24,479 nucleotides of DNA from an uncultured Pseudomonadales bacterium (GTDB lineage: Bacteria; Patescibacteriota; Microgenomatia; UBA1400; CG1-02-47-37), in contig CAZYUF010000004.1 in the NCBI GenBank assembly GCA_964650605.1, positions 1 to 24,479 of the forward strand. Reading direction: 5' to 3'. Shown one piece after another: positions 1 through 21,339 of the stretch. A model generated the notes under the pieces. It did not search any database. It saw nothing but the letters and a program-made list of their open reading frames with translations, and had not been told where the DNA came from. Every line of letters begins with the position of its first letter. Positions within the stretch are counted from its first letter, which is position 1. The position numbers and the translations under genes are program-made.

Positions 1-45
1 AAGCGCGCCGTTACCTGTCCGGCAACCTACGAGGTCCAACCTTGA
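1..45 (+). CDS. 3' end (partial) of a paralog of the thermonuclease/Ada-like-domain protein at 569..1240
   Basis: Frame +1 reads KRAVTCPATYEVQP* (TGA 43-45). This matches the C-terminus KRAATCPSAYEETPRR* of the 569..1240 protein, and the DNA is also similar (aagcgcgccgttacctgtcc vs aagcgcgccgccacttgtcc). Confidence 0.7.
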   Translation, partial: KRAVTCPATYEVQP

Positions 46-48
46 AAG
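26..48. repeat. 23-bp hairpin, variant C (CCTACGAGGT-CCA-ACCTTGAAAG), degenerate member of the REP-like family
   Basis: Same length, same CCTAC start and same 10+3+10 layout as the other copies. Inner stem GAGGT/ACCTT; outer stem has two mismatches. Same codon position as the 1215 hairpin in the paralog. Confidence 0.55.
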
Positions 49-512: not shown

Positions 513-568
513 AACAGTATACTTTAAAGTTGGCAATTCGGCAGTTTAAAGCGGATAATGTAAGTTAC

Positions 569-1240
569 ATGAAATCTAAGGTTGCCAAGATTAGCTTAAT
601 CACAGTTGCTGTTGCCGGCTTTCTTGGTTTGTCTTTCGGTTCAGCTAAGCCTGTCTATGTTCCCAGTTACCGCGCTGTCCGGGTGATCGACGGCGACACC
701 TTTGAAACCGCCGAAAAACAATGGATCCGCGTTTCCGGCATCGACGCCCCTGAACAGGGTATGTGCGGCAGCCGGGAAGCCAAACAAGAACTGGAAAAAT
801 TGGTTCTCGGCAAAGACATTTACTTAAAAGTCATGTACCACGATTCCACCCGGCTGATGGCCCTGGTATATAGCAAAGATGGCTTAATCGCCACCAAGAT
901 GCTTGCTTCCGGCTGGGCAGAACTTAACGACCGTGACGGTTTAGGTCTGCCGGAATTAAGCCAGGCAGTTAAAGCGGCCCGGGAGCAAAAAATCGGCTTG
1001 TTCAGCCAGCAGTGCACTCAAACGGTTAATCCGGATAAACCTGACTGCAAAATTAAAGCCAACAAAACTACCAATAATCCTCCCACCTACCATTTTCCCG
1101 GCTGCAACTCTTACAATGTGGTTTTAGTTGAACTTCATCACGGCGATGACTGGTTCTGCACTGAAAAAGAAGCCCAGGCTGCCGGTTTTAAGCGCGCCGC
1201 CACTTGTCCATCAGCCTACGAGGAGACTCCTCGCAGGTAA
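569..1240 (+). CDS. Membrane-anchored/secreted thermonuclease (SNase family) with C-terminal Ada-metal-binding-like domain
   Basis: N-terminal hydrophobic segment; RVIDGDTFE and IRVSGIDAPE SNase motifs; C-terminal CKIKAN...YHFPGC...WFCTEKEAQAAGFKRA. ATG 569 preferred over the TTG at 530. The last 8 codons come from the hairpin. Confidence 0.85.
   Translation: MKSKVAKISLITVAVAGFLGLSFGSAKPVYVPSYRAVRVIDGDTFETAEKQWIRVSGIDAPEQGMCGSREAKQELEKLVLGKDIYLKVMYHDSTRLMALVYSKDGLIATKMLASGWAELNDRDGLGLPELSQAVKAAREQKIGLFSQQCTQTVNPDKPDCKIKANKTTNNPPTYHFPGCNSYNVVLVELHHGDDWFCTEKEAQAAGFKRAATCPSAYEETPRR
1215..1237. repeat. 23-bp REP-like hairpin, variant A (CCTACGAGGA-GAC-TCCTCGCAGG)
   Basis: Read directly. 1211..1237 is identical over 27 bp to 19915..19941. 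Confidence 0.95.
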
Positions 1241-1241
1241 A

Positions 1242-1841
1242 CTAAAGGCTTAATTTTAATCTGGCGCCGGAAAGATTGGCCTGCTCGCTGCTGGTGGACA
1301 TCAGCTCAATTACATAAGTATTAGTGCCGCTGTGGAGTTTAAAAGCCGGGGAGTTTTTCCAGGTAGCGGTATTGGAATTATTAAATATTTCCGTTACCTG
1401 CATAATCGCCCCGCTGGTTTTATTTTTCAGTCTGGCCCAGGCTTCGCCGTTGACAATTGACAGTTGCCCTTCAAACACCGCCTTTACTTCCGCCGGATAA
1501 TCACTGCTGTTCAGCTGGATTGCCGCGCTGGTTTCCGTCCATTCGGTTTTAACAGTACTAGCCGAACCCAAATAAATATTCTGGGGCTGCCATTGGACTG
1601 TCGCTGCCGGGGTGAAAACAGAACTCGGACTGGGACTGGGGATTAAACTCGGGCTCGGCTCTAAACCAGGGCTGGGGATTAAACTGGGACTGGGAACCAA
1701 ACTGGGTGTCGGAGCTAATTGTTGGCTGGTAATAAATAAATCCAATCTTTCCGCGAGCTTGTTTTGCTTAAGCCATAAACCAACCACGCCCAAGCCTAAA
1801 ACCATTAAACCCACTATCACTCCAATCTTAAAACGATCCAT
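1242..1841 (-). CDS. Hypothetical membrane-anchored protein with Pro/Ser-rich linker and extracellular beta-rich domain
   Basis: 199-aa ORF with an N-terminal TM helix (IGVIVGLMVLGLGVVGLWL) followed by PSPSLI-type repeats. Confidence 0.7.
   Translation of the reverse strand: MDRFKIGVIVGLMVLGLGVVGLWLKQNKLAERLDLFITSQQLAPTPSLVPSPSLIPSPGLEPSPSLIPSPSPSSVFTPAATVQWQPQNIYLGSASTVKTEWTETSAAIQLNSSDYPAEVKAVFEGQLSIVNGEAWARLKNKTSGAIMQVTEIFNNSNTATWKNSPAFKLHSGTNTYVIELMSTSSEQANLSGARLKLSL
1630..1719. repeat. Five imperfect 18-bp tandem repeats encoding P-[ST]-P-[SG]-L-[IVE]
   Basis: Units: ctgggactggggattaaa / ctcgggctcggctctaaa / ccagggctggggattaaa / ctgggactgggaaccaaa / ctgggtgtcggagctaat. Confidence 0.85.
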
Positions 1842-1847
1842 AAACTT

Positions 1848-1863
1848 TGCTATAATCTTATCA
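1848..1863. promoter_or_regulatory. Overlapping divergent extended -10 promoters
   Basis: Plus strand: TG-C-TATAAT (1848-1856), 6 nt before ATG 1863. Minus strand: TG-A-TAAGAT (1863-1855), 13 nt before ATG 1841. Confidence 0.5.
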
Positions 1864-2726
1864 TGAATCCGCTCAAATATGTTTTGATGATGCTCGCCTA
1901 TCTTTGGTTAAGGTTTGACCCGATCCTCTATATGACTTTTAGAAAAGACTGGACGCCCCGTTATGAATTTTTAGCCAATATTTTTGGTGAAATTGCCGCT
2001 GAAAAGTTTTTAGCCCATCGGGTTGACCTTGTTAAAGCCAGAAATAAAATTTTACCGCCGATAGTTCTTTCCGCTGATGTTGATAAAAAAATCACTGAAT
2101 TTTTAACAACTAAACCCTTGGCCCAACCCAATAAAACCAAGCGTCTGGAAATTATCGACCAACTGATCTTTTGGGCAGTTGATCCGGAGATTAACCGTTT
2201 TAATATCGACAGCTACAAATCCCGCTCCGCTATTGTTGACGCTTTATTGAATCCTATCTTCCAGAACAGTTTAGCCGGTGAAATCAACTGTATCTTAGAC
2301 GGTCTTAAAACAATTGTTTTTTCCCGGGTAACCTACCTTGGCAGTAAAGGTGAACCTTCGCCAATCGTTCACAATGTTATTCTTTCCGGCGCCGCCCGGA
2401 TATTAACTTCTCATTTCAACGAACTTGTCAGGCTAAGGGATGAAAAACTGGACAAATTGACCAAGGTCAGGCTGATTAAAGAAATTAATCAAGCCAAAGG
2501 TGAAACCGGTTCTCTCGCTTTTTCCGCCGAACCCAGAATTGAAGAAGACTTTCAAGCCCGCTACCCATTGCCCAATTATCAGGCCAAGCTTTTATGGAAG
2601 ATTTTAACCCATTACCGCTTTTCCGCTTGGCCGGAATCAAGGGAAAAAGCGGCTAAGCTCATTAACAGCTTCCATAAACAACTGGGCTTTCCCCCGGAAG
2701 AACTATTTGTTTTAAGCAGAAAATAA
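1863..2726 (+). CDS. Hypothetical protein (287 aa) immediately upstream of atpB
   Basis: Long ORF with an ATG start and its own -10 box. No family recognised. Confidence 0.7.
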   Translation: MNPLKYVLMMLAYLWLRFDPILYMTFRKDWTPRYEFLANIFGEIAAEKFLAHRVDLVKARNKILPPIVLSADVDKKITEFLTTKPLAQPNKTKRLEIIDQLIFWAVDPEINRFNIDSYKSRSAIVDALLNPIFQNSLAGEINCILDGLKTIVFSRVTYLGSKGEPSPIVHNVILSGAARILTSHFNELVRLRDEKLDKLTKVRLIKEINQAKGETGSLAFSAEPRIEEDFQARYPLPNYQAKLLWKILTHYRFSAWPESREKAAKLINSFHKQLGFPPEELFVLSRK

Positions 2727-9814: not shown

Positions 9815-11188
9815 ATGGCTTTAGATCCTATTATTTTTAAAGATTACGATATCCGTGCCTTAGTTCCCAGCCAGCTTGATGCCGCCGGCATTAAGCGGAT
9901 TGCCCAAGCCATGGTGAAATTATTTCAACCCCATTCAGTGCAGATCGGCCGGGACATGCGCCTCACTTCAGTCGAATTACAGCAAGCCTTAATTGCCGGC
10001 TTTTTAGAATCCGGCGTTAATGTCGTCGACTTAGGCCTGATCGCCACCGATATGCTCTATTACGCTTCCGGCACTTACCCCGAAGATCTGGGCATTACCA
10101 TCAGCGCTTCCCATAATCCGCCCGAATATAACGGCCTGAAAATTGTTAAAAAAGGCGCCATAGCCATCAGCGGCAACAGCGGCATTTATCAAATCCGCGG
10201 CCTGGCCGTTTCTGATCAGGATTTAGGCCTTAAAGGCGTTCCGCCGGGAACTTTAACCAAAAGGGATATTTTAGCCGAATGGGTTAACCATGCCCTTAAA
10301 TTTATCGATTTAACTCAAATGAAGCCGTTTAAAGTCGTTATTGATGCCGGTAATGGCATGGCCGGTTACTTTATGCCTGCTTTTGAAGCTAAATTGCCCT
10401 GGCGGGCCACCCGGCTTTTTTATGACTTGGACGGCAGCTTTCCTAATCATCTTCCCAGTCCCAGCGAAGAGAAAAATATGGTCCCGACTATAAATGCTGT
10501 CAAAGGCGGCGGCGCTGATCTTGGTATGGCTTTTGACGGCGACGGCGACCGCGTTTTCTTAGTCGACGAAACCGGCCGGATTGTCTCCGGTACCATTATG
10601 ACGGCTATTATTGCCGAAAACTTGCTCCAAAAACATCCTCACGATACTGTTCTTTATAATGCTATCATCGGCCGGGTAGTCCCGGAAATAATTAAACAAC
10701 ACCAGGGTAAGGCAGTCCGTGTCCGCGTCGGCCACACCTTGATTAAAGAAGCCATGCGGACTAATAACGGCCTGTTTTGCGGCGAACATTCCGGCCATTA
10801 TTATTTCCGGGATAATTTTTTCGCTGATTCCGCTATTATTTCCGCTCTCTTAGTCTTAGAATTGATTTCCCAAAAAAAAGTTCAACTATCCCGCCTGGTT
10901 GACCGTTATGATAAATATCCCTGTTCCGGAGAAATCAACTTTGTCGTTACCGACAAACAAAGCGTCCTAAAACAAATCCAAGCCGAGTATCAGTCACGGA
11001 CCAAATCAATCGATTGGCTGGACGGCATCTCTTTATGGTTTCCGGCTTGGTGGGCCAATATCCGTCCTTCCCACACCGAACCGCTGCTGCGCTTGAACTT
11101 GGAAGCCGATAATGCAAAAATTTTGCAAACCAAAACCGAAGAATTTATTAAACTGATTGAACGCCTTGGCGGTAAAAGGAAGTTATGA
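9815..11188 (+). CDS. Phosphomannomutase/phosphoglucomutase (alpha-D-phosphohexomutase)
   Basis: FKDYDIR, TISASHNPPEYNG phosphoserine loop, DGDGDR metal loop and GEHSGH. Start ATG 9815. Confidence 0.95.
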   Translation: MALDPIIFKDYDIRALVPSQLDAAGIKRIAQAMVKLFQPHSVQIGRDMRLTSVELQQALIAGFLESGVNVVDLGLIATDMLYYASGTYPEDLGITISASHNPPEYNGLKIVKKGAIAISGNSGIYQIRGLAVSDQDLGLKGVPPGTLTKRDILAEWVNHALKFIDLTQMKPFKVVIDAGNGMAGYFMPAFEAKLPWRATRLFYDLDGSFPNHLPSPSEEKNMVPTINAVKGGGADLGMAFDGDGDRVFLVDETGRIVSGTIMTAIIAENLLQKHPHDTVLYNAIIGRVVPEIIKQHQGKAVRVRVGHTLIKEAMRTNNGLFCGEHSGHYYFRDNFFADSAIISALLVLELISQKKVQLSRLVDRYDKYPCSGEINFVVTDKQSVLKQIQAEYQSRTKSIDWLDGISLWFPAWWANIRPSHTEPLLRLNLEADNAKILQTKTEEFIKLIERLGGKRKL

Positions 11189-12264
11189 AAAATTTAGATA
11201 AATTCAATGTTTACGGCTCTATCCTGGACTTAGCCAAGCAATGCCGGCACGCCTATAAAGAAGCCAATCAGGTGGAAATTAAACCCCGCCCAGTTAAACA
11301 GTTGATTATGTCCGGCATGGGCGGCTCGATTCTGGCAGCCCGGGTAATTGAATCACTTTACGCTCAGGAACTGACAGTCCCTTTAATCAAAGTTAATGAT
11401 TATCATTTACCGGCTTGGGCCGATCAAAACAGTTTACTGGTTTGTTCCAGTTATTCCGGCACCACAGAAGAGACGGTCCAAACTTTAAAAGAGGCCATCC
11501 TTAAAAACTGTCAAATTTTAGTTATCTGCGGCGGGGGAGAGCTGGAAACACTAGCCAAACAACATCGCTTGCCGCTGTATAAAATCAACCCGGTTTATAA
11601 TCCCTGTAATCAGCCCCGCATGGCCATCGGTTACTCTTTGATTGGCCAGCTGGTTATGGTCGCCAAAGCCGGCTTATTAAAATTAGCGCAAAAAGAGATT
11701 GACCAGCTTGAGCCGGTCCTGCAGACGGTCATCAAAACTAATCAGCGTGATTTGCCTTTAGCGGTTAATCCGGCCAAAAAGTTAGCCCAAGCCCTGCACA
11801 CTAAACAAATAGTGATGGTGGCAGCCGAACACCTGACCGGCGCTTTCCATGTGGTGAAAAATCAGCTGAATGAGAATGCCAAACAGTTATCCCACCGCCA
11901 CGATTTGCCTGAACTAAACCACCATCTGCTCGAGGGTTTGCGTTTTCCTGAATCTAATCAAAAAGATGTGGCTTTCTGGCTGGTTAACTCTAAGCTCTAT
12001 TCTCCCCGTCTGCAAACTCGTGTCCGCTTGACTATCGATGTGGTTCAAAAAAATAAAATCAAGGCTTTTACCTTTACCCCCTCTGCTGACACTAAACTGG
12101 CCCAGGTTCTGGAACTGATTCAATTCGGCAGTTTTGTTAACTATTATTTAACCGTCCTTAACCGCCTGGATCCCGCCCCTATCCCCTGGGTCGCCTACTT
12201 CAAGAAGAGCCTACAAGGAACATCCTTGCAGGCTAATTCTCCAAATCAATTGTTAAATCTTTAA
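11185..12264 (+). CDS. Bifunctional phosphoglucose/phosphomannose isomerase (SIS-domain PGI/PMI) with hairpin-derived C-terminal extension
   Basis: SGMGGS, SYSGTTEET, QPR, NENAK and PELNHH. The expected end (DPAPIPWVAYFKK) continues through the hairpin as SLQGTSLQA and into the antisense tail of the transposase. Confidence 0.9.
   Translation: MKNLDKFNVYGSILDLAKQCRHAYKEANQVEIKPRPVKQLIMSGMGGSILAARVIESLYAQELTVPLIKVNDYHLPAWADQNSLLVCSSYSGTTEETVQTLKEAILKNCQILVICGGGELETLAKQHRLPLYKINPVYNPCNQPRMAIGYSLIGQLVMVAKAGLLKLAQKEIDQLEPVLQTVIKTNQRDLPLAVNPAKKLAQALHTKQIVMVAAEHLTGAFHVVKNQLNENAKQLSHRHDLPELNHHLLEGLRFPESNQKDVAFWLVNSKLYSPRLQTRVRLTIDVVQKNKIKAFTFTPSADTKLAQVLELIQFGSFVNYYLTVLNRLDPAPIPWVAYFKKSLQGTSLQANSPNQLLNL
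12210..12232. repeat. 23-bp REP-like hairpin, variant B (CCTACAAGGA-ACA-TCCTTGCAGG)
   Basis: Read directly; abuts the stop codon (12233-12235) of the minus-strand transposase remnant. Confidence 0.95.
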
Positions 12265-12404
12265 TAGTCACCACATCTCTTTCTTCTTGTTCTTCAACAA
12301 AATCCTGATAAGATTGTTTTTTAAAATAACTAAGAACTTCGCTTGTCTCCAGCCAAGATTGCGAAAACCTTCCCAGATAATTGGAATAACTAGAATATTT
12401 ATAG

Positions 12405-12427
12405 CCTTCAAGGAACATCCTTGCACT
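12405..12427. repeat. Hairpin variant B inside transposase copy 1 (CCTTCAAGGA-ACA-TCCTTGCACT)
   Basis: Read directly; translated on the minus strand as SARMFLEG. Confidence 0.9.
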
Positions 12428-12699
12428 TGCAGTCAGTGGATTCCTATGAATATATTTACTGATATAGATTAGCTGAGTTTCAGTTTTAATCTCGACAGCT
12501 TTAAAAATATTTTCGTATAATGGGCCGACTCGGTTATATTTTTTATTAAAATACAGCGAATACTTTGTTGCCAACGAACGCATAAAATGATTAATGCCGT
12601 CAATATCCACCTGATAAAGCAAAAAGTGATAGTGATTAGGCATTAAACAATAGGAATGAAGTCTCACTTTTCCAAAGTAATTTTTTAACCGTGAGGGTG

Positions 12700-12722
12700 C
12701 CTGCAAGGAACATCCTTGCAGA
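12700..12722. repeat. Hairpin variant B at the truncated 5' end of transposase copy 1 (CCTGCAAGGA-ACA-TCCTTGCAGA)
   Basis: Read directly; minus-strand frame reads LQGCSLQA. Confidence 0.92.
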
Positions 12723-12765
12723 TTTGCAGATATTCAAAAAGGTGCTAGCCTAAACTAAAAAAAAC

Positions 12766-12774
12766 TGCTATTCT
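12766..12774 (+). promoter_or_regulatory. Extended -10 box for ppsA (leaderless-type)
   Basis: TG-C-TATTCT 6 nt before ATG 12781; no SD. Confidence 0.45.
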
Positions 12775-12780
12775 TAATCA

Positions 12781-15075
12781 ATGCCCGATTCACTGCCCAT
12801 GATTGTTGATTTTAAACAAGTCGGTAAAACAGATATTGGCTTGGTCGGCGGCAAAGGCGCCAATCTTGGCGAAATGGTCCGGGCCGGTTTTCCGGTCCCT
12901 CCGGGATTTATCGTTACCTCTGCCGCTTACTTTCAAGTTCTTCAAATTAATAATTTAAAGCCAAAAATTAAATCCTTTCTCGATGACTTAGACATTCATG
13001 ACATTCATTCTCTCAATCAAGTTTCTCAACAGATTAAATCTTTAATCTCCCGTGCTAAAATTCCCGATCAGCTGGCCCTGGATATTATTAAACGCTATTT
13101 GAAGCTGGGCTCCGGACATAATCAAACTTTAGTGGCCGTCCGGTCTTCGGCCACAGCTGAAGATCTGCCCGATGCCTCTTTTGCCGGCCAGCAGGAAACC
13201 TATCTGAATGTCCAAGGCGAGGCGAACTTAATTCAAAACATCCGCGCCTGCTGGGCCTCGCTTTTTGAACCCCGCGCGATTTTCTACCGCCAGGAAAAAC
13301 ATTTTGACCACTTTAAGGTCGGTATTGCCGTTCCGGTCCAACAAATGATTCAAAGCCGCATTTCCGGCATTATGTTTACCGTTAATCCTGTCACTAACAA
13401 TAAAAATCAACTGGTGATTGAGGCAATCTGGGGCTTAGGTGAAAAAATTGTTCAGGGTGCCTATACCCCCGATCACTATTTAATTCAAAAACTCTCCTGG
13501 AAAATCCTCCAGAAACAAACTAATCCGCAAACTAAACAACTGACTTTGTCTCAAGATAAAAACCGCGAATTAAAACTGCCTAAAAACAAACAACGTCAAA
13601 CCAAGTTAACCGATGAGCAAATTATTTACTTAGCCAAACTGGGCCATCAGATCCAGCAGCACTATTTTTTTCCCCAGGATATCGAATGGGCTTTAACTGA
13701 CAACAAATTTTATCTAGTTCAATCCCGGCCGATTACTACCCTCAATCTTCAGGAAACTAAAATTGCCCCAGTCTCTACCAATAAATTAACCCTGCTTTTA
13801 AAGGGCGAACCCGCCAGTCCGGGGATAATCACCGGTTATAGCAGAATCTTAAAATCATCCCAAGAAATCAACCAGTTGCTACCGGGGGAAATCTTGGTTA
13901 CCGATATGACCACGCCTGACTTTGTTCCGGCCATGAAAAAAGCCGCCGCCATTGTCACCAATAAGGGCGGCCAAACTTCTCACGCCGCCATTGTTTCCCG
14001 GGAAATGGGCATTCCTTGCATTGTCGGCACAGCTACCGCCACTAAGGTCTTAAAAACCCGTACCGTGGTTACTGTCAATGGTCAGACCGGTGAAGTTTTC
14101 CTTGGCGGCGCTATTGCTAAACCTAAAAAAATCTCACTCGAAAAAATTACCAAGATTCCTGCCAAAGATTTAAAACCGGATACCCAAACTACCGCTACCA
14201 AACTCTATGTTAATTTAGGAGAACCGGATCTGGCGGAAAGCATTGGTCAAAAGAACGTTGATGGTTTAGGTTTGCTCCGGGCTGAATTTATGATTGCTCA
14301 AATCGGCACTCATCCCAAAAAACTGATCGCTGACCATAAAGAAGCTCAATTTATCGCCGGCTTAACTGCTGGTTTAGCTAAATTTGCCAAGGCTTTTTAC
14401 CCCCGGCCGGTAGTTTACCGGGCTACTGACTTTAAAACCAACGAATACTCCAATCTGATCGGCGGCAAGGCTTATGAACCCCAGGAACCAAATCCTATGC
14501 TTGGCTATCGGGGCGCCTTCCGCTATTTAACCGATGAAAAAGTCTTTGCCTTAGAACTCTATGCCTTAAAAAATGTCCGGGAAAAACTTGGGTATAAAAA
14601 CCTCTGGCTGATGATTCCCTTTGTCAGGACCGTTAAAGAGTTACAATCTGTGAAAAAAATTGTTTCCAGTTACGGTTTGGTCCGCTCGGCCTCTTTTAAA
14701 CTCTGGATGATGGTGGAAATTCCCGCCAATGTCCTGCTTTTGGAAGAGTTTATTAAAGTCGGCATCGATGGTGTTTCTATCGGCTCCAATGATTTAACCA
14801 TGTTGACACTGGGGGTTGACCGGGATAACAGCGAAGTTGCCTCTGCCTATGACGAACTTAATCCGGCGGTTTTATCTCTAATCGAAACCACCGTCAAAAC
14901 CTGCCGCAAAAATAAAATTACCTGCTCCATTTGCGGTCAAGCTCCTTCCCTCTATCCTGACCTGACCGAAAAACTCGTCCGCTGGGGGATTACCAGTGTT
15001 TCTGTCACTCCGGACATGATCGACCAGACACGCAACATTATTTATCAGGCTGAAAAGCGTTTAATCAATGGCTAA
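12781..15075 (+). CDS. ppsA: Phosphoenolpyruvate synthase (pyruvate, water dikinase)
   Basis: GGKGANLGEM, VAVRSSATAEDLPDASFAGQQETYLN, GGQTSHAAIVSRE (phospho-His) and SIGSNDLT. Confidence 0.96.
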   Translation: MPDSLPMIVDFKQVGKTDIGLVGGKGANLGEMVRAGFPVPPGFIVTSAAYFQVLQINNLKPKIKSFLDDLDIHDIHSLNQVSQQIKSLISRAKIPDQLALDIIKRYLKLGSGHNQTLVAVRSSATAEDLPDASFAGQQETYLNVQGEANLIQNIRACWASLFEPRAIFYRQEKHFDHFKVGIAVPVQQMIQSRISGIMFTVNPVTNNKNQLVIEAIWGLGEKIVQGAYTPDHYLIQKLSWKILQKQTNPQTKQLTLSQDKNRELKLPKNKQRQTKLTDEQIIYLAKLGHQIQQHYFFPQDIEWALTDNKFYLVQSRPITTLNLQETKIAPVSTNKLTLLLKGEPASPGIITGYSRILKSSQEINQLLPGEILVTDMTTPDFVPAMKKAAAIVTNKGGQTSHAAIVSREMGIPCIVGTATATKVLKTRTVVTVNGQTGEVFLGGAIAKPKKISLEKITKIPAKDLKPDTQTTATKLYVNLGEPDLAESIGQKNVDGLGLLRAEFMIAQIGTHPKKLIADHKEAQFIAGLTAGLAKFAKAFYPRPVVYRATDFKTNEYSNLIGGKAYEPQEPNPMLGYRGAFRYLTDEKVFALELYALKNVREKLGYKNLWLMIPFVRTVKELQSVKKIVSSYGLVRSASFKLWMMVEIPANVLLLEEFIKVGIDGVSIGSNDLTMLTLGVDRDNSEVASAYDELNPAVLSLIETTVKTCRKNKITCSICGQAPSLYPDLTEKLVRWGITSVSVTPDMIDQTRNIIYQAEKRLING

Positions 15076-16324
15076 GATTGTTAAAATTTTCGCCCGGGAA
15101 ATTTTAGACTCCCGCGCTAATCCGACGATCGAAACCACGGTCTTTTTAGACTCCGGCCATCAGGGCAAATACAGTGTCCCTTCCGGCGCTTCTTCCAGCA
15201 AATACGAAGCCTTTGAATTAAGGGACAATGATCCCGACCGCTTTGCCGGCATGGGAGTTTTAAAAGCCGTTAATCATGTTAATCAAATCATTGCCCCCAA
15301 AGTGATCGGCCTTGACCCCTCCTCTCAAACCAAGCTTGACCAACTATTAATTGATCTTGACGCCACCCCCAACAAAAGTAATTTAGGGGCTAATGCCCTT
15401 CTCTCGGTTTCTATTGCCGGTCTTAAAGCCAGTGCCGCCTATTATTGCTTACCGGTTTATCAATATATTGCTAAAAAGTATGGCTTAACTAAAATTATAA
15501 AAAAACTGCCCAGCCCAACCTTCAATATCATCAATGGCGGGGCCCATGGTGCCGGCAACTTAGATTTTCAGGAGTTTCATGTCATTCCTACTGCCAGATT
15601 TTCTTACCAGAAAGCCCTGCAAATGGGGATTGAAATTTATCATAGTCTTAAAAAAACCCTTAAGCTGCGGGGAGCGATCCACTCGGTTGGTGATGAAGGC
15701 GGTTTTGCCCCTAACTTATTTACCAACCTGGACGCCTTGGAAGTCATCCTTGAATCGATTAAGCAAACTCAGTATAAACTAACTCAGGATGTTTTTTTAG
15801 GCCTGGATGTTTCGGCGGGATTTTTCTTCAAACACAATCAATATCAGATTAAAGATCGGGCCCAGCCTTTTTCCCGGGATGAATTCATCGCTTACTATCA
15901 ACAGCTCAATCATGAATATCATCTTTTTTCCCTGGAAGACGGTTTAGATCAGGATGACTGGGAAGGCTGGTCTAAGCTGACCGACGAGCTCGGCCAAACT
16001 ACTTTAATTGTTGGCGATGACCTGCTTTCCACCAATAAAGAACGGGTGAAAAAAGCCATCGCCCTCAAAGCCTGCAATGCCGCTTTAATTAAACCCAATC
16101 AAATCGGCACGGTTTCCGAAACCATTGAAGTGATTAAATACTGTCAGGAAAATAATTTAAAAATCATTGTCTCCCACCGTTCCGGGGAAACCAACGATAC
16201 CTTTATTGCCGATTTAGCCGTGGGGGTCGGGGCCGATTACACTAAGTTTGGCGCCCCGGCACGGGGAGAAAGAATCGTCAAATACAACCGGTTGTTAGAA
16301 ATAGAAACCGAGCTTAAACTATAG
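15068..16324 (+). CDS. eno: Enolase
   Basis: AREILDSRANPT, VPSGAS, VGDEGGFAP, VSHRSGET and RGERIVKYNRLL. Confidence 0.98.
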   Translation: MAKIVKIFAREILDSRANPTIETTVFLDSGHQGKYSVPSGASSSKYEAFELRDNDPDRFAGMGVLKAVNHVNQIIAPKVIGLDPSSQTKLDQLLIDLDATPNKSNLGANALLSVSIAGLKASAAYYCLPVYQYIAKKYGLTKIIKKLPSPTFNIINGGAHGAGNLDFQEFHVIPTARFSYQKALQMGIEIYHSLKKTLKLRGAIHSVGDEGGFAPNLFTNLDALEVILESIKQTQYKLTQDVFLGLDVSAGFFFKHNQYQIKDRAQPFSRDEFIAYYQQLNHEYHLFSLEDGLDQDDWEGWSKLTDELGQTTLIVGDDLLSTNKERVKKAIALKACNAALIKPNQIGTVSETIEVIKYCQENNLKIIVSHRSGETNDTFIADLAVGVGADYTKFGAPARGERIVKYNRLLEIETELKL

Positions 16325-16325
16325 T

Positions 16326-17951
16326 ATGGATAAATCTCCGCTGGTTTTGATTATTTTGGACGGTTGGGGAATTTCTGCTCCCGGCCCGGGCAATGCCATT
16401 ACCAAAGCTCACCTGCCTTATTTTCACCAACTTCAGTCTGCCTACCTCTCAACTGAATTAGTTGCTTCCGGTCAGGCGGTCGGTCTCCCCGCCGGAGAAG
16501 ACGGCAACACCGAAGTCGGCCATATTAACATCGGCGCCGGCCAGATTGTCTTCCAGGACTTGCCCCGGATTAATACCGCTATTGCCGACGGCTCCTTCTT
16601 TCTCAATCCCAATCTCCTTAAAGCAATCGAGCATGTTCAAACTAACCATTCTACTTTGCATTTGATGGGCTTGATCGGTTCCGGCGGCGTTCATGCCAAT
16701 AACGAACACCTTTTCGCTTTGATCAAATTTGCCAAATTAAACAATATTCAAAAGCTTAGCCTGCACTTATTTACTGACGGCCGCGATTCCCCTCCCACCA
16801 CTTCCCAAACTTATTTAGCCGAAGTCCAGCAACACTTAACCGACAACAAACTGGGCGTCATTGCTTCGATTATGGGCCGCTACTACGCCTTGGACCGTGA
16901 CTTCCGCTGGGAAAGAACTCAAAGAGCTTATGAATGTCTCACTCAAGGCACTGGCTTAAAAGCTACCTCAGCCATCCAGGCAGTGCAAAACTCTTACCTT
17001 CAGCAAAAAACCGACGAGTTTATCGAACCCACTGTCATAACCGACACCAGCGGCACGCCTTTATCCTTAATTCAGGATAATGACGCCGTGATTTTCTATA
17101 ACTTCCGGGTTGACCGTCCCCGCCAACTGACCAAAGCTTTTGTTCTGTCTGATTTTGCCGCCCAGGCCAACCAACTGGCTTTCGACCCTTTAGCCGACCG
17201 TTATCTCCATAGCCATCTGCCTGCCAAAGCTTCTGTCAATCCTCCCTTCTCCCGTCAAATATTCCTGAAGCGTCTTTTCTTTTTAACCATGACCGAATAC
17301 CAGGCCAACTTGCCGATACCGGCGATTATTTCGCCCCAGCATATCGAAATGCCTTTAAGCCGGGTCCTCAGTGAAGCCAATATCCGACAGTTAAAAATCT
17401 CGGAAACCGAAAAAGAGCGCTTCGTCACTTACTATTTTAACGGCCAGCGGGAACAGCCTTTTGACGCCGAAGATTGGCTGATCATTCCCTCTCCAAAAGT
17501 CGCCACCTACGATCTACAGCCGGAAATGTCTACTCCTCAATTAACCACTGCCTTAATCAATAAGCTAAAAACCGGATTTTATCAGTTTATTGCCATTAAT
17601 ATCGCCTGTCCGGACATGGTCGCCCACACCGGCAACTTAGCCGCTACCATCAGGGCCTGCGAAGCTGTTGACGCTTTTCTGTCCCAAACAATCCCGGTTA
17701 TTTCAGCTCTCAATGGCTCGGCAATTATTACTGCCGACCACGGCAATGCTGAAGAGTTAATCAATTTGCAGACCGGCCAAATCGATACGGAACATTCCGC
17801 CAACCCGGTCCCTTGTATTATTGTTAGCTCTCAATTTCAGGGCCAAACCAGAAAATTAAACCAGGGAATTTTAGCCGACGTTGCTCCGACTATTTTAAAA
17901 CTATTAAACCTGCCTAAGCCTGAGCAAATGACCGGCACCAGTTTAATTTAA
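16326..17951 (+). CDS. gpmI: 2,3-bisphosphoglycerate-independent phosphoglycerate mutase
   Basis: LIILDGWG, GNTEVGH, DGRD, NFRVDR, ETEK, PDMVAHTG and TADHGNAE. Confidence 0.97.
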   Translation: MDKSPLVLIILDGWGISAPGPGNAITKAHLPYFHQLQSAYLSTELVASGQAVGLPAGEDGNTEVGHINIGAGQIVFQDLPRINTAIADGSFFLNPNLLKAIEHVQTNHSTLHLMGLIGSGGVHANNEHLFALIKFAKLNNIQKLSLHLFTDGRDSPPTTSQTYLAEVQQHLTDNKLGVIASIMGRYYALDRDFRWERTQRAYECLTQGTGLKATSAIQAVQNSYLQQKTDEFIEPTVITDTSGTPLSLIQDNDAVIFYNFRVDRPRQLTKAFVLSDFAAQANQLAFDPLADRYLHSHLPAKASVNPPFSRQIFLKRLFFLTMTEYQANLPIPAIISPQHIEMPLSRVLSEANIRQLKISETEKERFVTYYFNGQREQPFDAEDWLIIPSPKVATYDLQPEMSTPQLTTALINKLKTGFYQFIAINIACPDMVAHTGNLAATIRACEAVDAFLSQTIPVISALNGSAIITADHGNAEELINLQTGQIDTEHSANPVPCIIVSSQFQGQTRKLNQGILADVAPTILKLLNLPKPEQMTGTSLI

Positions 17952-17955
17952 ATTT

Positions 17956-19947
17956 ATGGAATTAGCCAGCCTGTTTTCCCCCCGCTCCATTGCTCTAATC
18001 GGCGCCTCGGCCAATAAAGCCAAACTCGGCTGGCAAATTCTAAATAAACTACGGCAAAGCCATTTGCCGATTTTTCCCATTAATCCCCATGAATCCCAAA
18101 TCGCAAACACCCGCGCTTATCCTTCGATTCTGGACGTGCCTGATCCGGTTGATCTGGCCATCGTGGTTGTGCCCGCCCCGATCGTTAATGTGGTCGTAGA
18201 GCAAGCCGCCGAGAAAAAAGTTAAGTCGATCGTGGTAATTTCCGCTGGTTTTTCTGAAACCGGTCCCCAAGGAAAAAAACTGGAGATCGTTTTAAAAAAA
18301 CTCTGCCGAAAACAGCAAATTAATCTCCTTGGTCCCAATGTTTTGGGTTTTGCCAACCCGGCCAAGAAGTTAGATATTACTTTTGCCAAAACCGCTCCTA
18401 TGCCTGGCAACATCGGCTTAATCTCTCAATCAGGCGCCATCGGTGCCTACCTTTTTGACTGGGCTAAATCAGAGAATCTGGGGTTTTCTAAATTTGTTTC
18501 CTTAGGCAACCGCGCCGGTTTAACCGAAACTGACTTCTTAACTTTCCTGTCCGCCGACCCGGACACCAAAGTAATTGGTCTTTATCTGGAATCATTTGCC
18601 GACGGCCAGAAATTTTTATCCGTGACCAGCCAGGTGGCTCGAAAAAAACCAATCGTAGTTATTTTTGGCGGCCAAACTCAAGCCGGCAAACAAGCCGCCC
18701 TCAGCCACACGGCCGCCTTAAGCCCGGAAACAGCCGTGATTAAAACCGCTTTGGCTCAAGCCGGCTGTATTCAAGCCGATAATTTAGAGGCTTTCACCGG
18801 CTTATTGGAAATTTTTTCTCTGGAACCACCCTTAGTTGACAATGACCTCGTGATTGTCACTAATGCCGGCGGTCCGGGAATCTTAGCCGCTGACAAGGCC
18901 GACGCGGTCCGCTTAAAAGTGGAGCGGCCAACTGATGTTCGGGGCGACGCTTTGGCAGAACAGTTCAACACGGCTTTCCGGCAAGTGATTAAAGATAAGA
19001 TTAAAGACGCTTTCTTAATTATTCTTACTCCGCAAACTATGACTCAGTTGGAACTAACCTGTCAGGCAGTAGTAAAACAATTTAAACACATTAAAAAACC
19101 AATAGTCGTTTCCTTGTTAGGCGGAGAAATCACCGCTAAGGCTAAGGAGATTTTAAGAAAAAACCGGATTGCCACTATCGACTTTCCCCAAAAAGCCGTT
19201 GACTATCTAAGTATTCTTTTCCAATATTGGCACAACCGCACTCAGCAAATTACTTATCCTGTGAGGCGAAGCTCACTTATTAAAGTTTCTTGCCCCCGTC
19301 TTCAGCCTGGACAACAAACTTGGCAGCAAATTAAAATCTTAGCCAAAGCTTACCATTTGCCTTTGGTTGCAACTAAAATTGTCAAGGAAAACTCTCTACT
19401 TCAATTAATTAAAGAGTTCGGCTTTCCTTTAGTTTTAAAAGCCGACCCAACCGAAGCTTTGCACCGGACTGAAAAAAAAGCTTTGTTTCTTAATTTAAAC
19501 TCCGCCAAGACCGTTCAAAAATACTTTAATCAATTAAAGTCCCGCTTTACCACCATTCTGATCCAGCCGCAAATCCGTTCCGGCCATGAACTATTCATTG
19601 GTGTCAAGCGCCCCCCTAGCTTCCCCCCCTTATTAACCATTGGCTCAGGCGGAATTTACACCGAAATTTATCAGGATGTGGGCCACACTTTTTTACCTGT
19701 CAACAAAACCTCCGCCTTAAAACTGTTAGCTCAAACTAAACTCGGACAGATCTTGCAGGGCGCCCGGGGCCTGCCGCCGACCAATCTCCGCCCGGTAATC
19801 GATTTAATTTTAAATGTCTCCCAATTAGCGCTTAACTTCCCCCAAATCGAAGAAATAAATATCAACCCGGCCATTATCAATCAAAATAAAGTAGACATCG
19901 TCGATATCAAAATCTCAGCCTACGAGGAGACTCCTCGCAGGCTCTAA
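17956..19947 (+). CDS. Acetate-CoA ligase (ADP-forming), fused alpha/beta (ACD family)
   Basis: CoA-binding N-domain (IALIGAS, AYPSILDVPDPVDLA, GPNVLG), SQSGA, ALSHT phospho-His, TNAGGPG and a C-terminal ATP-grasp (PLVLKA, ININP). No GNAT domain. Last 9 codons are hairpin-derived. Confidence 0.9.
   Translation: MELASLFSPRSIALIGASANKAKLGWQILNKLRQSHLPIFPINPHESQIANTRAYPSILDVPDPVDLAIVVVPAPIVNVVVEQAAEKKVKSIVVISAGFSETGPQGKKLEIVLKKLCRKQQINLLGPNVLGFANPAKKLDITFAKTAPMPGNIGLISQSGAIGAYLFDWAKSENLGFSKFVSLGNRAGLTETDFLTFLSADPDTKVIGLYLESFADGQKFLSVTSQVARKKPIVVIFGGQTQAGKQAALSHTAALSPETAVIKTALAQAGCIQADNLEAFTGLLEIFSLEPPLVDNDLVIVTNAGGPGILAADKADAVRLKVERPTDVRGDALAEQFNTAFRQVIKDKIKDAFLIILTPQTMTQLELTCQAVVKQFKHIKKPIVVSLLGGEITAKAKEILRKNRIATIDFPQKAVDYLSILFQYWHNRTQQITYPVRRSSLIKVSCPRLQPGQQTWQQIKILAKAYHLPLVATKIVKENSLLQLIKEFGFPLVLKADPTEALHRTEKKALFLNLNSAKTVQKYFNQLKSRFTTILIQPQIRSGHELFIGVKRPPSFPPLLTIGSGGIYTEIYQDVGHTFLPVNKTSALKLLAQTKLGQILQGARGLPPTNLRPVIDLILNVSQLALNFPQIEEININPAIINQNKVDIVDIKISAYEETPRRL
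19919..19941. repeat. 23-bp REP-like hairpin, variant A (CCTACGAGGA-GAC-TCCTCGCAGG)
   Basis: Read directly; identical to 1215..1237 including the preceding TCAG. Confidence 0.95.
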
Positions 19948-20600
19948 AACATCAATACTATCTCGCCTTTAATTTTCCTGTCTCGCATTTTTTCTAAAAG
20001 CTCTTCCGGTCTGCCCCGCACTACTTCTTCAAACTTTTTTGTCAGCTCCCGGCAGATAACCACTTGCTTTTCCGGCATTAATTTTTGCAGCAGTTCTAAA
20101 GTTTTAATTATTCTATAGGGGGATTCATAAGCAATCACTGTATATTTAGCCTCTTTTAGCAATTTTTCTTTTTTCCCCGCTTTCTTGGGCAAAAATCCTA
20201 AAAATGTAAACTTGTCAGTTGGCAAGCCGGAAACTACCAAAGCCGCCAGCAATGCCGACGCCCCGGGAATCGGAACAACCTGAATATTTTCTTTTACGCA
20301 TTCCCGCACTAATTTAAAACCCGGGTCGGAAATCAGCGGCGTGCCGGCGTTAGTGACCAAACCGACACTTTTGCCTGCTTTCAACCAAACAATTACCTCG
20401 GGAATTTTTTGCTCTTCCACCGGTTCATAAAAACTGACCAGTATCGGCAAAGGTTTTATCTGATAAAAATCCAACAACTGCTTGGTTTTACGCGTATCCT
20501 CGCACAAAAGATAGTCCAGTTTAGTGAAAATCTCCAAAGCCCGCAAGGTAATATCCTGGCGGTTGCCGATCGGCGTTGACACTATATAAATTTCAGCCAT
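19944..20600 (-). CDS. rsmI: 16S rRNA (cytidine1402-2'-O)-methyltransferase
   Basis: IVSTPIGNRQDITLRAL, CEDTR, AGTPLISDPG, YESPYR and RELTKKFEE. Confidence 0.96.
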   Translation of the reverse strand: MAEIYIVSTPIGNRQDITLRALEIFTKLDYLLCEDTRKTKQLLDFYQIKPLPILVSFYEPVEEQKIPEVIVWLKAGKSVGLVTNAGTPLISDPGFKLVRECVKENIQVVPIPGASALLAALVVSGLPTDKFTFLGFLPKKAGKKEKLLKEAKYTVIAYESPYRIIKTLELLQKLMPEKQVVICRELTKKFEEVVRGRPEELLEKMRDRKIKGEIVLMF

Positions 20601-20609
20601 ATGACTAAA

Positions 20610-20618
20610 ATTATATCA
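20610..20618 (-). promoter_or_regulatory. Extended -10 box for rsmI
   Basis: Minus-strand TG-A-TATAAT, 9 nt before ATG 20600, directly beside the hairpin remnant at 20621. Confidence 0.55.
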
Positions 20619-20630
20619 TGCCTACGAGTG

Positions 20631-20653
20631 CCTGCGAGGAGTCTCCTCGCAGG
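20631..20653. repeat. Hairpin variant A (CCTGCGAGGA-GTC-TCCTCGCAGG)
   Basis: Perfect palindrome around a central T; abuts the stop codon (20654-20656) of transposase copy 2. Confidence 0.95.
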
Positions 20654-21301
20654 TTAAATTTCTTCAATCAAAACAGATTTTATAGTGGGCAAGTCACGTT
20701 CGTCAGTTTCCTCAACAAACGATTTATAAGTACTATTAATAAAATCCAAAGGTTCAACCCAAGCTTGGCTGAACAATCTTAAATAATTAGGATAGCTCGA
20801 GTACTTATAACCTGCAAGACCTGCGAGGAGACTCCTCGCAGGCAAAAGATTCAGGGGATTACGATGAATATACTTAGATAAATAAAGTAATTGATCCTCG
20901 CTTTCCACCAAAACTGCTTTATAAACGCTCTGGAAAACCGGGCCGACCCGCTTGTATTTTCGATTAAAATAACGGGAGTATTTAGTTGCCAAAGATCGCA
21001 TAAAAAAATTAATCCGGTCAAATTCATTCTGCCAGATTAATAGGTGAAAATGGTTAGGAAGCAAACAATAAGCAATTAGTTTAACCTGGTCGGCGTAATT
21101 TTTTAGTTGCTTCGATGGCGCTACTTTAACCTGCGAGGAGTCTCCTCGCAGGTCGGGAAAAGACAAATAAAACTTTAGATAGCTTAAAAAAGTTTTATAG
21201 TCTTGCTCGTTTAGGAATATCGGTTCCTTGTTTACGCCACGGTTATATATATGATAATAGCTTTTCTCGACATATATTTTTAACGTATTTTTCGAAGGCA
21301 T
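20654..21301 (-). CDS. rayT: REP-associated tyrosine transposase (RAYT-like, Y1/HUH, IS200/IS605 superfamily), copy 2, apparently intact
   Basis: YHIYNRG, YCLLPNHFHLL (HUH), YIHRNP (NP motif) and YKYSSY; no tnpB nearby. ATG 21301 (MPSKN) preferred because TATAAT lies 7 nt upstream of it; ATG 21310 is the alternative. Confidence 0.9.
   Translation of the reverse strand: MPSKNTLKIYVEKSYYHIYNRGVNKEPIFLNEQDYKTFLSYLKFYLSFPDLRGDSSQVKVAPSKQLKNYADQVKLIAYCLLPNHFHLLIWQNEFDRINFFMRSLATKYSRYFNRKYKRVGPVFQSVYKAVLVESEDQLLYLSKYIHRNPLNLLPARSLLAGLAGYKYSSYPNYLRLFSQAWVEPLDFINSTYKSFVEETDERDLPTIKSVLIEEI
20820..20842. repeat. Hairpin variant A inside transposase copy 2 (CCTGCGAGGA-GAC-TCCTCGCAGG)
   Basis: Perfect palindrome; translated as PARSLLAG. 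Confidence 0.95.
21130..21152. repeat. Hairpin variant A inside transposase copy 2 (CCTGCGAGGA-GTC-TCCTCGCAGG)
   Basis: Perfect palindrome; translated as DLRGDSSQV. Confidence 0.95.
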
Positions 21302-21308
21302 TGTTTTC

Positions 21309-21314
21309 ATTATA
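21309..21314 (-). promoter_or_regulatory. -10 box for transposase copy 2
   Basis: Minus-strand TATAAT, 7 nt before ATG 21301 and 2 nt from the upstream hairpin. Confidence 0.5.
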
Positions 21315-21316
21315 TG

Positions 21317-21339
21317 CCTACGAGGAGTCTCCTTGTAGG
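21317..21339. repeat. Hairpin variant A upstream of transposase copy 2 (CCTACGAGGA-GTC-TCCTTGTAGG)
   Basis: Read directly; compensatory A4/T20 pair and G6-T18 wobble. Confidence 0.92.

Follow-up and report, generated by a model that had tools for sequence, protein, structure and literature searches.

In-frame palindromic hairpins in and around RAYT-like transposase genes of a Patescibacteria genome

A RAYT-like gene with hairpins of one family at its flanks and inside its reading frame

We analysed a contig of 24,479 nucleotides (hereafter, the window; GenBank assembly GCA_964650605.1, contig CAZYUF010000004.1, positions 1 to 24,479 of the forward strand), deposited as an uncultured Pseudomonadales bacterium and placed by GTDB in the Patescibacteriota. 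The window is contig 4 of a 0.7-Mb assembly of 86 contigs and carries two genes resembling those of REP-associated tyrosine transposases (RAYTs; REP, repetitive extragenic palindrome), enzymes of the Y1/HUH type: copy 2 (C4b), which is the main subject of this analysis, and copy 1 (C4a), a 5'-truncated remnant (Table 1). A repeat scan recovered one 23-nt palindrome family, whose consensus in the window is CCTRCRAGG-N5-CCTYGYAGG, at positions 1215, 12210, 12405, 12700, 19919, 20631, 20820, 21130 and 21317. At copy 2, hairpins of this family lie upstream (UP) and downstream (DOWN) of the gene and at two sites inside it (S1 and S2). Start-to-start spacings are 187/310/189 bp at copy 2 and 295/195 bp at copy 1; for both copies, positions and spacings reproduce those given by a first-pass annotation of the same DNA. 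The open reading frame (ORF) of copy 2, 20654..21310(-), remains open through both inner hairpins with no stop codon.

The hairpin family is far more abundant in the window than expected by chance. Allowing up to 2 mismatches, a degenerate motif search of the whole window gave 9 matches versus 0.02 expected (100 shuffles); these take in an extra copy at 26 and omit the decayed copy at 12405, which needs 3 mismatches. Folded as single-stranded DNA, S1, S2 and DOWN of copy 2 reach -12 to -13 kcal/mol (z -6 to -7), and the mismatched UP hairpin of the same gene folds at -5 kcal/mol. The compensatory changes at stem positions 4/20, 6/18 and 10/14 that had been noted in the first pass are found again among 65 copies from across the genome, together with a further compensatory pair at 11/13.

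Table 1. Features of the two RAYT-like copies and of the associated hairpins in the window.
Feature	Position	Strand	Remarks
RAYT-like Y1/HUH gene, copy 2 (C4b)	20654..21301	-	215 aa from ATG 21301; ORF also opens at 21310
Upstream (UP) hairpin, copy 2	21317..21339		Subtype A, with a single A.C/G.T mismatch; 15 nt between its end and ATG 21301
S1 hairpin, copy 2	21130..21152		In frame; encodes residues 50-58 (DLRGDSSQV)
S2 hairpin, copy 2	20820..20842		In frame; encodes residues 153-161 (LPARSLLAG)
Tandem partial 3'-arm copy adjoining S2	20810..20819	-	CTCGCAGGT then CTTGCAGGT; adds in-frame LAG
Downstream (DOWN) hairpin, copy 2	20631..20653		0 nt after stop codon
Remnant half-arm CACTCGTAGGCA directly after DOWN hairpin	20619..20630	-	Read from sequence
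RAYT copy 1 (C4a), 5'-truncated remnant	12233..12727	-	Homology to paralogs starts at S1 hairpin
S1 hairpin, copy 1	12700..12722		Subtype B; present 5' boundary of remnant
S2 hairpin, copy 1	12405..12427		Subtype B; decayed to 6-bp stem; -4.3 kcal/mol, z -1.7
DOWN hairpin, copy 1	12210..12232		Subtype B; also in 3' end of converging ORF 11185..12264(+)
Dispersed subtype-A hairpin	19919..19941		Converging ends of acetate-CoA-ligase-type gene and rsmI
Dispersed subtype-A hairpin	1215..1237		3' end of ORF 530..1240(+)
Dispersed subtype-D-like hairpin	26..48		Motif search

The copy 2 protein and its conserved genomic position

In the 215-aa numbering, the HUH motif of the copy 2 protein is N83-H84-F85-H86 and the catalytic tyrosine is Y144, within Y144-I-H-R-N148-P149. 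H84, H86, Y144 and the Y..NP motif are invariant among 66 homologs. In Pfam, the protein matches Y1_Tnp only (E 4.8e-8; 33.6 bits versus a cut-off of 23), with no helix-turn-helix (HTH) or DnaA_C-like C-terminal domain. An AlphaFold2 model built on the 66 homologs has a predicted local distance difference test score (pLDDT) of 90.3 and a predicted template modelling score (pTM) of 0.87. Its best Foldseek match in the PDB is 4er8_A, the E. coli TnpA-REP with a REP hairpin (E 1.6e-6; TM-score 0.64 by target length), and structures of IS200/IS605 TnpA come next in the list. At the sequence level, a single-sequence search of PDB sequences with the RAYT protein gave no match, and a profile search of PDB sequences gave weak matches only. 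Taken together, the Y1_Tnp match, the HUH and Y..NP motifs and the fold match to 4er8 uphold the RAYT-like identity proposed in the first pass. In the model, helix 32-46 and strand 73-80 are joined by a loop that contains the S1 residues and whose block of residues 51-60 has a pLDDT of 64, and the S2 residues directly follow the catalytic helix 135-152; the inner inserts are thereby predicted to sit in loops away from the catalytic core.

The exact 218-aa protein, the four hairpins and identical gene neighbours recur on contigs from at least six independent samples, and therefore the layout is not an assembly artefact. In total, 12 contigs of other samples are syntenic with C4b. The closest foreign locus, L005, belongs to a metagenome-assembled genome (MAG) of Candidatus Beckwithbacteria and is 83% identical to the C4b protein. 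It shares as neighbours the genes for a pyruvate/2-oxoacid:ferredoxin oxidoreductase, rsmI and an acetate-CoA-ligase-type protein. Because C4b and L005 lie between the same genes, we consider the gene to be probably a vertically inherited chromosomal resident. The residues LAG contributed by the partial 3'-arm copy at S2 are missing in L005, leaving a gap in the alignment.

TATAAT-like boxes are visible next to the hairpins: GTAGGCATATAATG directly after the UP hairpin (window 21302-21316), 8-13 nt before the RAYT ATG, and GTAGGCATGATATAAT after the DOWN hairpin (window 20601-20630), before rsmI. Comparable boxes also come after the UP hairpins of paralogs C1, C48 and C5, described below. A consensus promoter scan did not call the boxes beside the hairpins; the hairpins may overlap promoters of short-leader transcripts. 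Separately, the hairpins at 1215-1237, 19919-19941 and 12210-12232 sit on stop codons or a few bases away from them, where genes converge, and partly encode the C-termini of ORFs 530..1240, 17956..19947 and 11185..12264.

RAYT paralogs and their matching hairpin subtypes

The genome encodes six RAYT paralogs with 39-63% identity and no near-identical duplicates, and contains at least 10 palindrome families. Within the CCTRCRAGG family, compensatory stem changes together with loop differences define subtypes A-D. At the sites UP, S1, S2 and DOWN, paralog C4b has subtype A throughout, C1 subtype C and C48 subtype D, while all three sites of the truncated C4a have subtype B. Such homogeneity of all four loci has a permutation P = 1e-6. 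UP and DOWN hairpins of the same subtype flank C4b, C1, C48 and C5, and 10-18 further copies per subtype are found elsewhere in the genome, in line with the earlier observation that the inner hairpins are of the same kind as the flanking and dispersed ones. The two most diverged paralogs, C5 and C17, have families E and H in their flanks only and never inside the gene; family E lies on both sides of C5 and family H only upstream of C17.

Inner hairpins are concentrated in the RAYT genes. The RAYT ORFs (3.8 kb) contain seven of them versus 0.53 expected (P = 1.4e-6), an approximately 13-fold excess, and dispersed copies share a contig with their own RAYT 7 times where 1.32 would be expected (P = 4e-4). 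In other genes that contain more than one hairpin the subtypes are mixed; UvrC, for instance, has G, B and B. The RAYT genes are thus set apart by this excess and by carrying their own subtype at every site. As for the foot of the hairpin, 36 of the 65 subtype A-D copies have GTAGG on at least one strand, the remainder having GCAGG or GAAGG; the GTAG tetranucleotide lies within the stem and not 5' of it. S1, S2 and DOWN of copy 2 have GCAGG feet.

Composite arrangements were seen at several places. Two hairpins of different subtype have a common arm, CCTGCAGG, at C37 2800-2837, and two hairpin copies stand back to back at C84 211-256. At S2 of the C48 paralog (L002 753-800), a threefold in-frame repeat of the 9-nt 3' arm CTTGAAGGT encodes LEG LEG LEG; in the window, the 3' arm is repeated once at S2 (20810-20842).

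The layout recurs in related genomes with different hairpin sequences

A scan with one genome per species yielded at least 572 relatives, of which the best 80 loci, mostly labelled Patescibacteria, were examined. These 80 foreign loci and the six paralogs of the source genome, minus three without motifs, make up 83 scored loci. At 46 of the 83, the gene is accompanied by a repeated palindrome specific to its genome, which in 28 of those 46 also occurs inside the ORF at S1 and/or S2. S1 is located between the helix FLSYLKxYL and the strands bearing the HUH motif, and S2 between YIHxNP and YxYSSY. No hairpin separates the HUH and Tyr motifs at any of the 83 loci, and copies elsewhere in the +-1.5 kb flanks number only six. 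The hairpin sequences are wholly different between genomes, with an inner CAAGG...CCTTG core common to most. In a strongly supported clade of 11 genes that includes copy 2, all members have inner hairpins, with differing sequences, and other clades have inner hairpins at slightly shifted places of the same loops. The loops vary in length, and homologs without hairpins often have decayed peptide relics such as TLKG..TFKG or QGxA..LR. The Saccharibacteria-type genes have the shortest loops and flanking hairpins only, and since these homologs do without inner copies, such copies would be dispensable for catalysis. A fixed orientation of the hairpins, as for the left and right ends of IS200, was considered and rejected, every orientation pattern being present.

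Several loci of this set (L008, L013, L015-L017, L027-L031, L071 and L073) cluster with Patescibacteria genes despite other MAG labels, many of them 'uncultured Gammaproteobacteria/Pseudomonadales', one Nanoarchaeia and one Acidobacteriota. These labels are probably wrong, or the contigs mis-binned.

Hairpins at one locus change together while the protein is conserved

Comparison of C4b with its syntenic ortholog L005 shows a change of the same direction in stem pairs 4/20 and 6/18 at each of S1, S2 and DOWN, with UP of C4b in an intermediate state. Parallel change at three sites each is also seen between L015 and L044 and between L062 and L083. Over the whole gene, the ratio of nonsynonymous to synonymous divergence (dN/dS) between C4b and L005 is 0.067, and the protein is therefore under strong purifying selection. 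For the same pair, dS is 0.315 in the 15 hairpin codons versus 1.83 in the remaining gene, about six times lower. We conclude from this low value that the nucleotides of the inner hairpins are constrained or homogenised beyond the need of the protein. Linked variation of the DOWN loop centre at 20642 (A/T) and of the base bordering the hairpin at 20654 (A/G) is seen in 4 of 6 other assemblies.

Copy 1 is truncated at its S1 hairpin

Copy 1 is without the N-terminal strand and the YHIYNRG motif, and what it lacks is exactly the part upstream of the S1 hairpin. On the simplest reading, the truncation is a deletion between the UP and S1 repeats and represents a cost of carrying inner repeats. It is the one truncated copy among 86 loci (the 80 foreign loci and the six paralogs), and no further copy cut at a hairpin was found among the 80 foreign loci.

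The only other disruptions among these foreign loci are of different kinds. A Candidatus Blackburnbacteria homolog (L068:1467-2201) has all four hairpins (TGACAGGGT..ACCCTGTCA) but shifts frame near 1869-1908, and the L028 gene is interrupted by an in-frame stop. In L060 and L066 the motifs are degenerate, with PDHFH/PGHFH and a Tyr motif missing its NP. These four are possibly decaying or inactive copies.

Hairpins are also written into ordinary genes

By a simple ORF test, 56 of the 96 hairpins of the genome (~58%) lie at least 45 nt inside ORFs. Among ORFs that Pfam confirms as essential genes, in-frame hairpins are found in SecA (C36 3794-3816), PheT (C24 4578-4600), ArgS (C59 2768-2788) and a GT4 glycosyltransferase (C3 9710-9732), and UvrC (C26 6827/7516/7650) has three of two subtypes. 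The first pass had viewed the gene of the enzyme as a hairpin-punctuated substrate; with over half of the hairpins of the genome in frame in other genes, the RAYT gene is not uniquely punctuated and this view is weakened. In ArgS, one loop of the DALR domain has hairpin-coded peptides that differ between several related genomes and are absent from others (LQGDSSQV, LQGESLKVNLQGQTLK and KVRPC in the comparison of L095, L098 and L099 with L090:300-2048), and a UvrC loop has a hairpin relic in one relative; both the ArgS and the UvrC loop are missing or different in relatives. From these alignments, the ArgS DALR loop is a hot-spot loop in which the occupying hairpin family turns over. Permissive loops with in-frame hairpins and a changing occupant family are thus habitual in the lineage. 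That REP hairpins are routinely written into essential proteins of Patescibacteria matters for the annotation and alignment of proteins of the Candidate Phyla Radiation (CPR).

Comparison with known REP/RAYT systems

In-frame REP insertions within tnpA-REP genes have been described for subclass 2.4 (Quentin, Siguier, Chandler and Fichant, 2018, BMC Genomics; PMC6006769), and the core phenomenon is accordingly already in print. In part, therefore, the arrangement seen in the first pass is already known; the signatures and insertion sites are others here. As in subclass 2.4 (RAYT group 4), cognate REPs flank the gene and sit inside it in peripheral loops with the frame intact, and the 8-aa insert reported 'at the end of alpha-B' in that subclass may match the S1 position. 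Unlike in subclass 2.4, no insertion described here falls within the HuH-Y core: S1 precedes the HUH strands and S2 follows the Tyr helix. The signatures are FQ (Q124 is nearly invariant), YIH[RL]NP and a YxYSSY/SS extension, as opposed to WQ, YIxNNP and no extension in subclass 2.4 (PMC6006769 Table 1), and the hosts are Patescibacteria, whereas subclass 2.4 is found mainly in Cyanobacteria and Bacteroidetes.

The motifs resemble instead those of subclass 2.1, also known as RAYT group 1 or TIRYT (Quentin 2018, PMC6006769; Bertels 2017, PMC5581495; Di Nocera 2013, PMC3733652), with NH[YF]H, FQ, Y[IV]HLNP, SS after the core and a length of ~215-240 aa. For both subclasses the signatures are compared with the motifs of Table 1 in PMC6006769 only, where the NH[YF]H set stands second of those given for subclass 2.1. 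The genes of that subclass are reported to have no REP-like sequences nearby (PMC6006769). Here, unlike in that subclass, cognate hairpins flank and enter the gene and Pfam does not find a C-terminal HTH/DnaA_C-like domain. REPs in frame in their own gene are thus extended from subclass 2.4 to a 2.1-like family, subclass 2.1 being reported as free of REPs.

Similarities with the REPtrons of E. coli, Stenotrophomonas and Marinomonas (4ER8; PMC3333891, PMC3479197, PMC8266576) include the TnpA-REP fold and a gene flanked by hairpins that are dispersed in the genome, and would extend to a GTAG-type foot (GTAGG/GCAGG here) and to vertical inheritance at a fixed locus. Those REPtrons have extragenic REPs and a single-copy gene, whereas the 0.7 Mb studied here contain six diverged paralogs and at least six hairpin families matched to them, with the majority of hairpins translated. 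Di Nocera 2013 (PMC3733652) reported intragenic REPs that are in frame in loops of unrelated genes, including the DNA-repair gene uvrA, and Rickettsia palindromic elements (RPEs), as cited there, are short in-frame palindromes in unrelated, often essential genes. The hairpins described here share with both the in-frame placement of short palindromes in loops of genes that are unrelated and often essential, DNA-repair genes among them (here UvrC, in that study uvrA), and are unlike them in that ~58% of copies are inside ORFs and each family is tied to a RAYT paralog in the same genome. An IS200/IS605 insertion sequence was ruled out by the diverged paralogs, the syntenic orthologs and the Tyr motif, which is of the Y..NP class and not of the YIKNQ type. 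What is new here is the subclass, the insertion positions, the phylum and the clear co-variation of the hairpins.

This lineage is an unusually small system in which to study how REPs spread and what RAYTs do for the cell. Six diverged enzymes, each tied to a hairpin subtype of its own, are found in a single very small genome and make up a natural catalogue of enzyme-hairpin pairs. In dozens of related genomes the hairpin of the locus changes at all sites together, which gives a handle on the renewal of REPs.

Origin and maintenance of the inner hairpins

We consider it probable that copy 2 and copy 1 belong to a Patescibacteria family of REP-associated tyrosine (Y1/HUH) transposase-like proteins forming REPtron-type units, and that in these units two permissive loops of the gene have taken up its cognate hairpins, which locus-biased copying or conversion keeps like the flanking ones. 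Directly observed are the anatomy of the locus, the subtype matching, the site conservation, the hairpin co-variation and the purifying selection; we infer the locus bias and the mode by which copies are homogenised. In this explanation, the 23-nt palindromes would be cognate REP hairpins, each paralog being paired with its own subtype both at its flanks and scattered through the genome. Translation of the hairpins would be tolerated in this lineage, where ordinary genes often have them in frame in their surface loops. The RAYT would offer two permissive loops, S1 before the HUH strands and S2 past the catalytic Tyr helix, with its own subtype in both. The most likely reason for inner copies of the own subtype is that the enzyme would act mostly near its own gene, and an ongoing copy replacement or gene conversion would keep the copies of the locus alike. 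Selection at the level of the protein would hold the inserts in frame and free of stops. With 23-bp repeats inside it, the gene would be prone to deletion, as copy 1 suggests.

A number of points speak against this explanation. The copy 2 protein scores 41 bits with the NCBIfam equivalog REP_Tyr_transpos (NF047646), under the cut-off of 80, and six paralogs per genome are untypical of classical single-copy RAYTs. Binding or cutting of the hairpins by the copy 2 protein is predicted from its family. The exact place of the hairpin within the S1 and S2 loops varies between clades, and because of this, repeated independent insertion is indistinguishable from persistence with replacement. The reduced dS concerns 15 codons only and could reflect functional constraint and not homogenisation. 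Finally, the changes at 20642 and 20654 are the only hairpin polymorphism among near-identical strains and fall within the 1-2% background divergence, for which reason no accelerated turnover is claimed.

The inner hairpins might instead be control elements under selection, to which the enzyme binds in single-stranded DNA at replication or in mRNA and so limits its own production, or self-destruct sites where part of the gene is lost through the enzyme or through recombination; the self-limiting activity suggested in the first pass is of this kind. We judge this rather unlikely. That the inner copies are invariably of the cognate subtype, that synonymous sites are conserved in hairpin codons, that the inner layout persists over many clades and that copy 1 is cut exactly at S1 would all agree with such a role, as would the GCAGG feet of S1, S2 and DOWN at copy 2, given that a GCAG foot is still bound and barely cut in S. 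maltophilia (PMC8266576). Against it, the ordinary genes ArgS and UvrC have comparable hot-spot loops with comparable occupancy, many homologs, including all of the Saccharibacteria type, have no inner copies, decayed relics are common, the orientation of the hairpins is variable, and a truncated copy was found just once. Other facts would suit a purely passive origin, with random insertion, survival only at S1 and S2, and neither locus bias nor homogenisation: hairpins are in frame across the whole genome, their place within the loops varies among clades, and the modelled inserts are in loops off the catalytic core. We nevertheless hold a purely passive origin to be improbable, since random insertion does not explain one subtype at all four sites of a gene despite at least 10 families (P = 1e-6) and leaves unexplained the ~13-fold excess in RAYT ORFs and the parallel changes at several sites between orthologs.

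The first pass had also raised the possibility that the hairpins act as exchange points that shuffle the three modules of the gene between paralogs. Common 23-bp repeats at equivalent places of the paralogs could support recombination, and in module 1, compared with module 3, L010 is relatively nearer to L008 and L009. Module-wise identity matrices for the 11-gene clade, however, give the same nearest neighbours in all three modules; the closest pairs, C4b-L005 and L001-L002, are the same throughout and identities fall in parallel. As the modules are short (about 49, 95 and 55 aa), the small discordances are within noise. We therefore reject module shuffling, to which we assign hardly any likelihood.

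We put forward one further reading tentatively and with more doubt than belief: the enzyme itself would drive an 'overwrite' that keeps the hairpins identical at the RAYT locus and in the fixed loops of other genes, working best near its own gene. The mechanisms of REP dissemination are poorly understood (PMC8266576). If true, overwrite would provide a concrete mechanism of dissemination and renewal for REP/RAYT systems, and the six matched enzyme-hairpin pairs in 0.7 Mb would amount to a specificity code of natural origin. Feedback might be a further role of the inner copies.

Other palindrome families and repeats

Some palindrome families of the genome have no RAYT in the assembly. The family AGTTCAATGATTTAAATCATTGAACT has 3 copies on one contig (C10 3074-3111, 3544-3575 and 7106-7133), and the family TTACCACCCCGGGGTGGTAA has 5-6 copies, mostly inside ORFs, on C2/C7/C19/C21/C39/C70. 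The families TGACAAGGT...ACCTTGTCA and CCTGCAGGTTC.GAACCTGCAGG are likewise without a RAYT in the assembly. In the window, positions 1629-1736 contain 4-6 tandem 18-nt units (ACTGGGACTGGGGATTAA-like) inside the overlapping ORFs 1242..1841(-) and 1612..1866(+).

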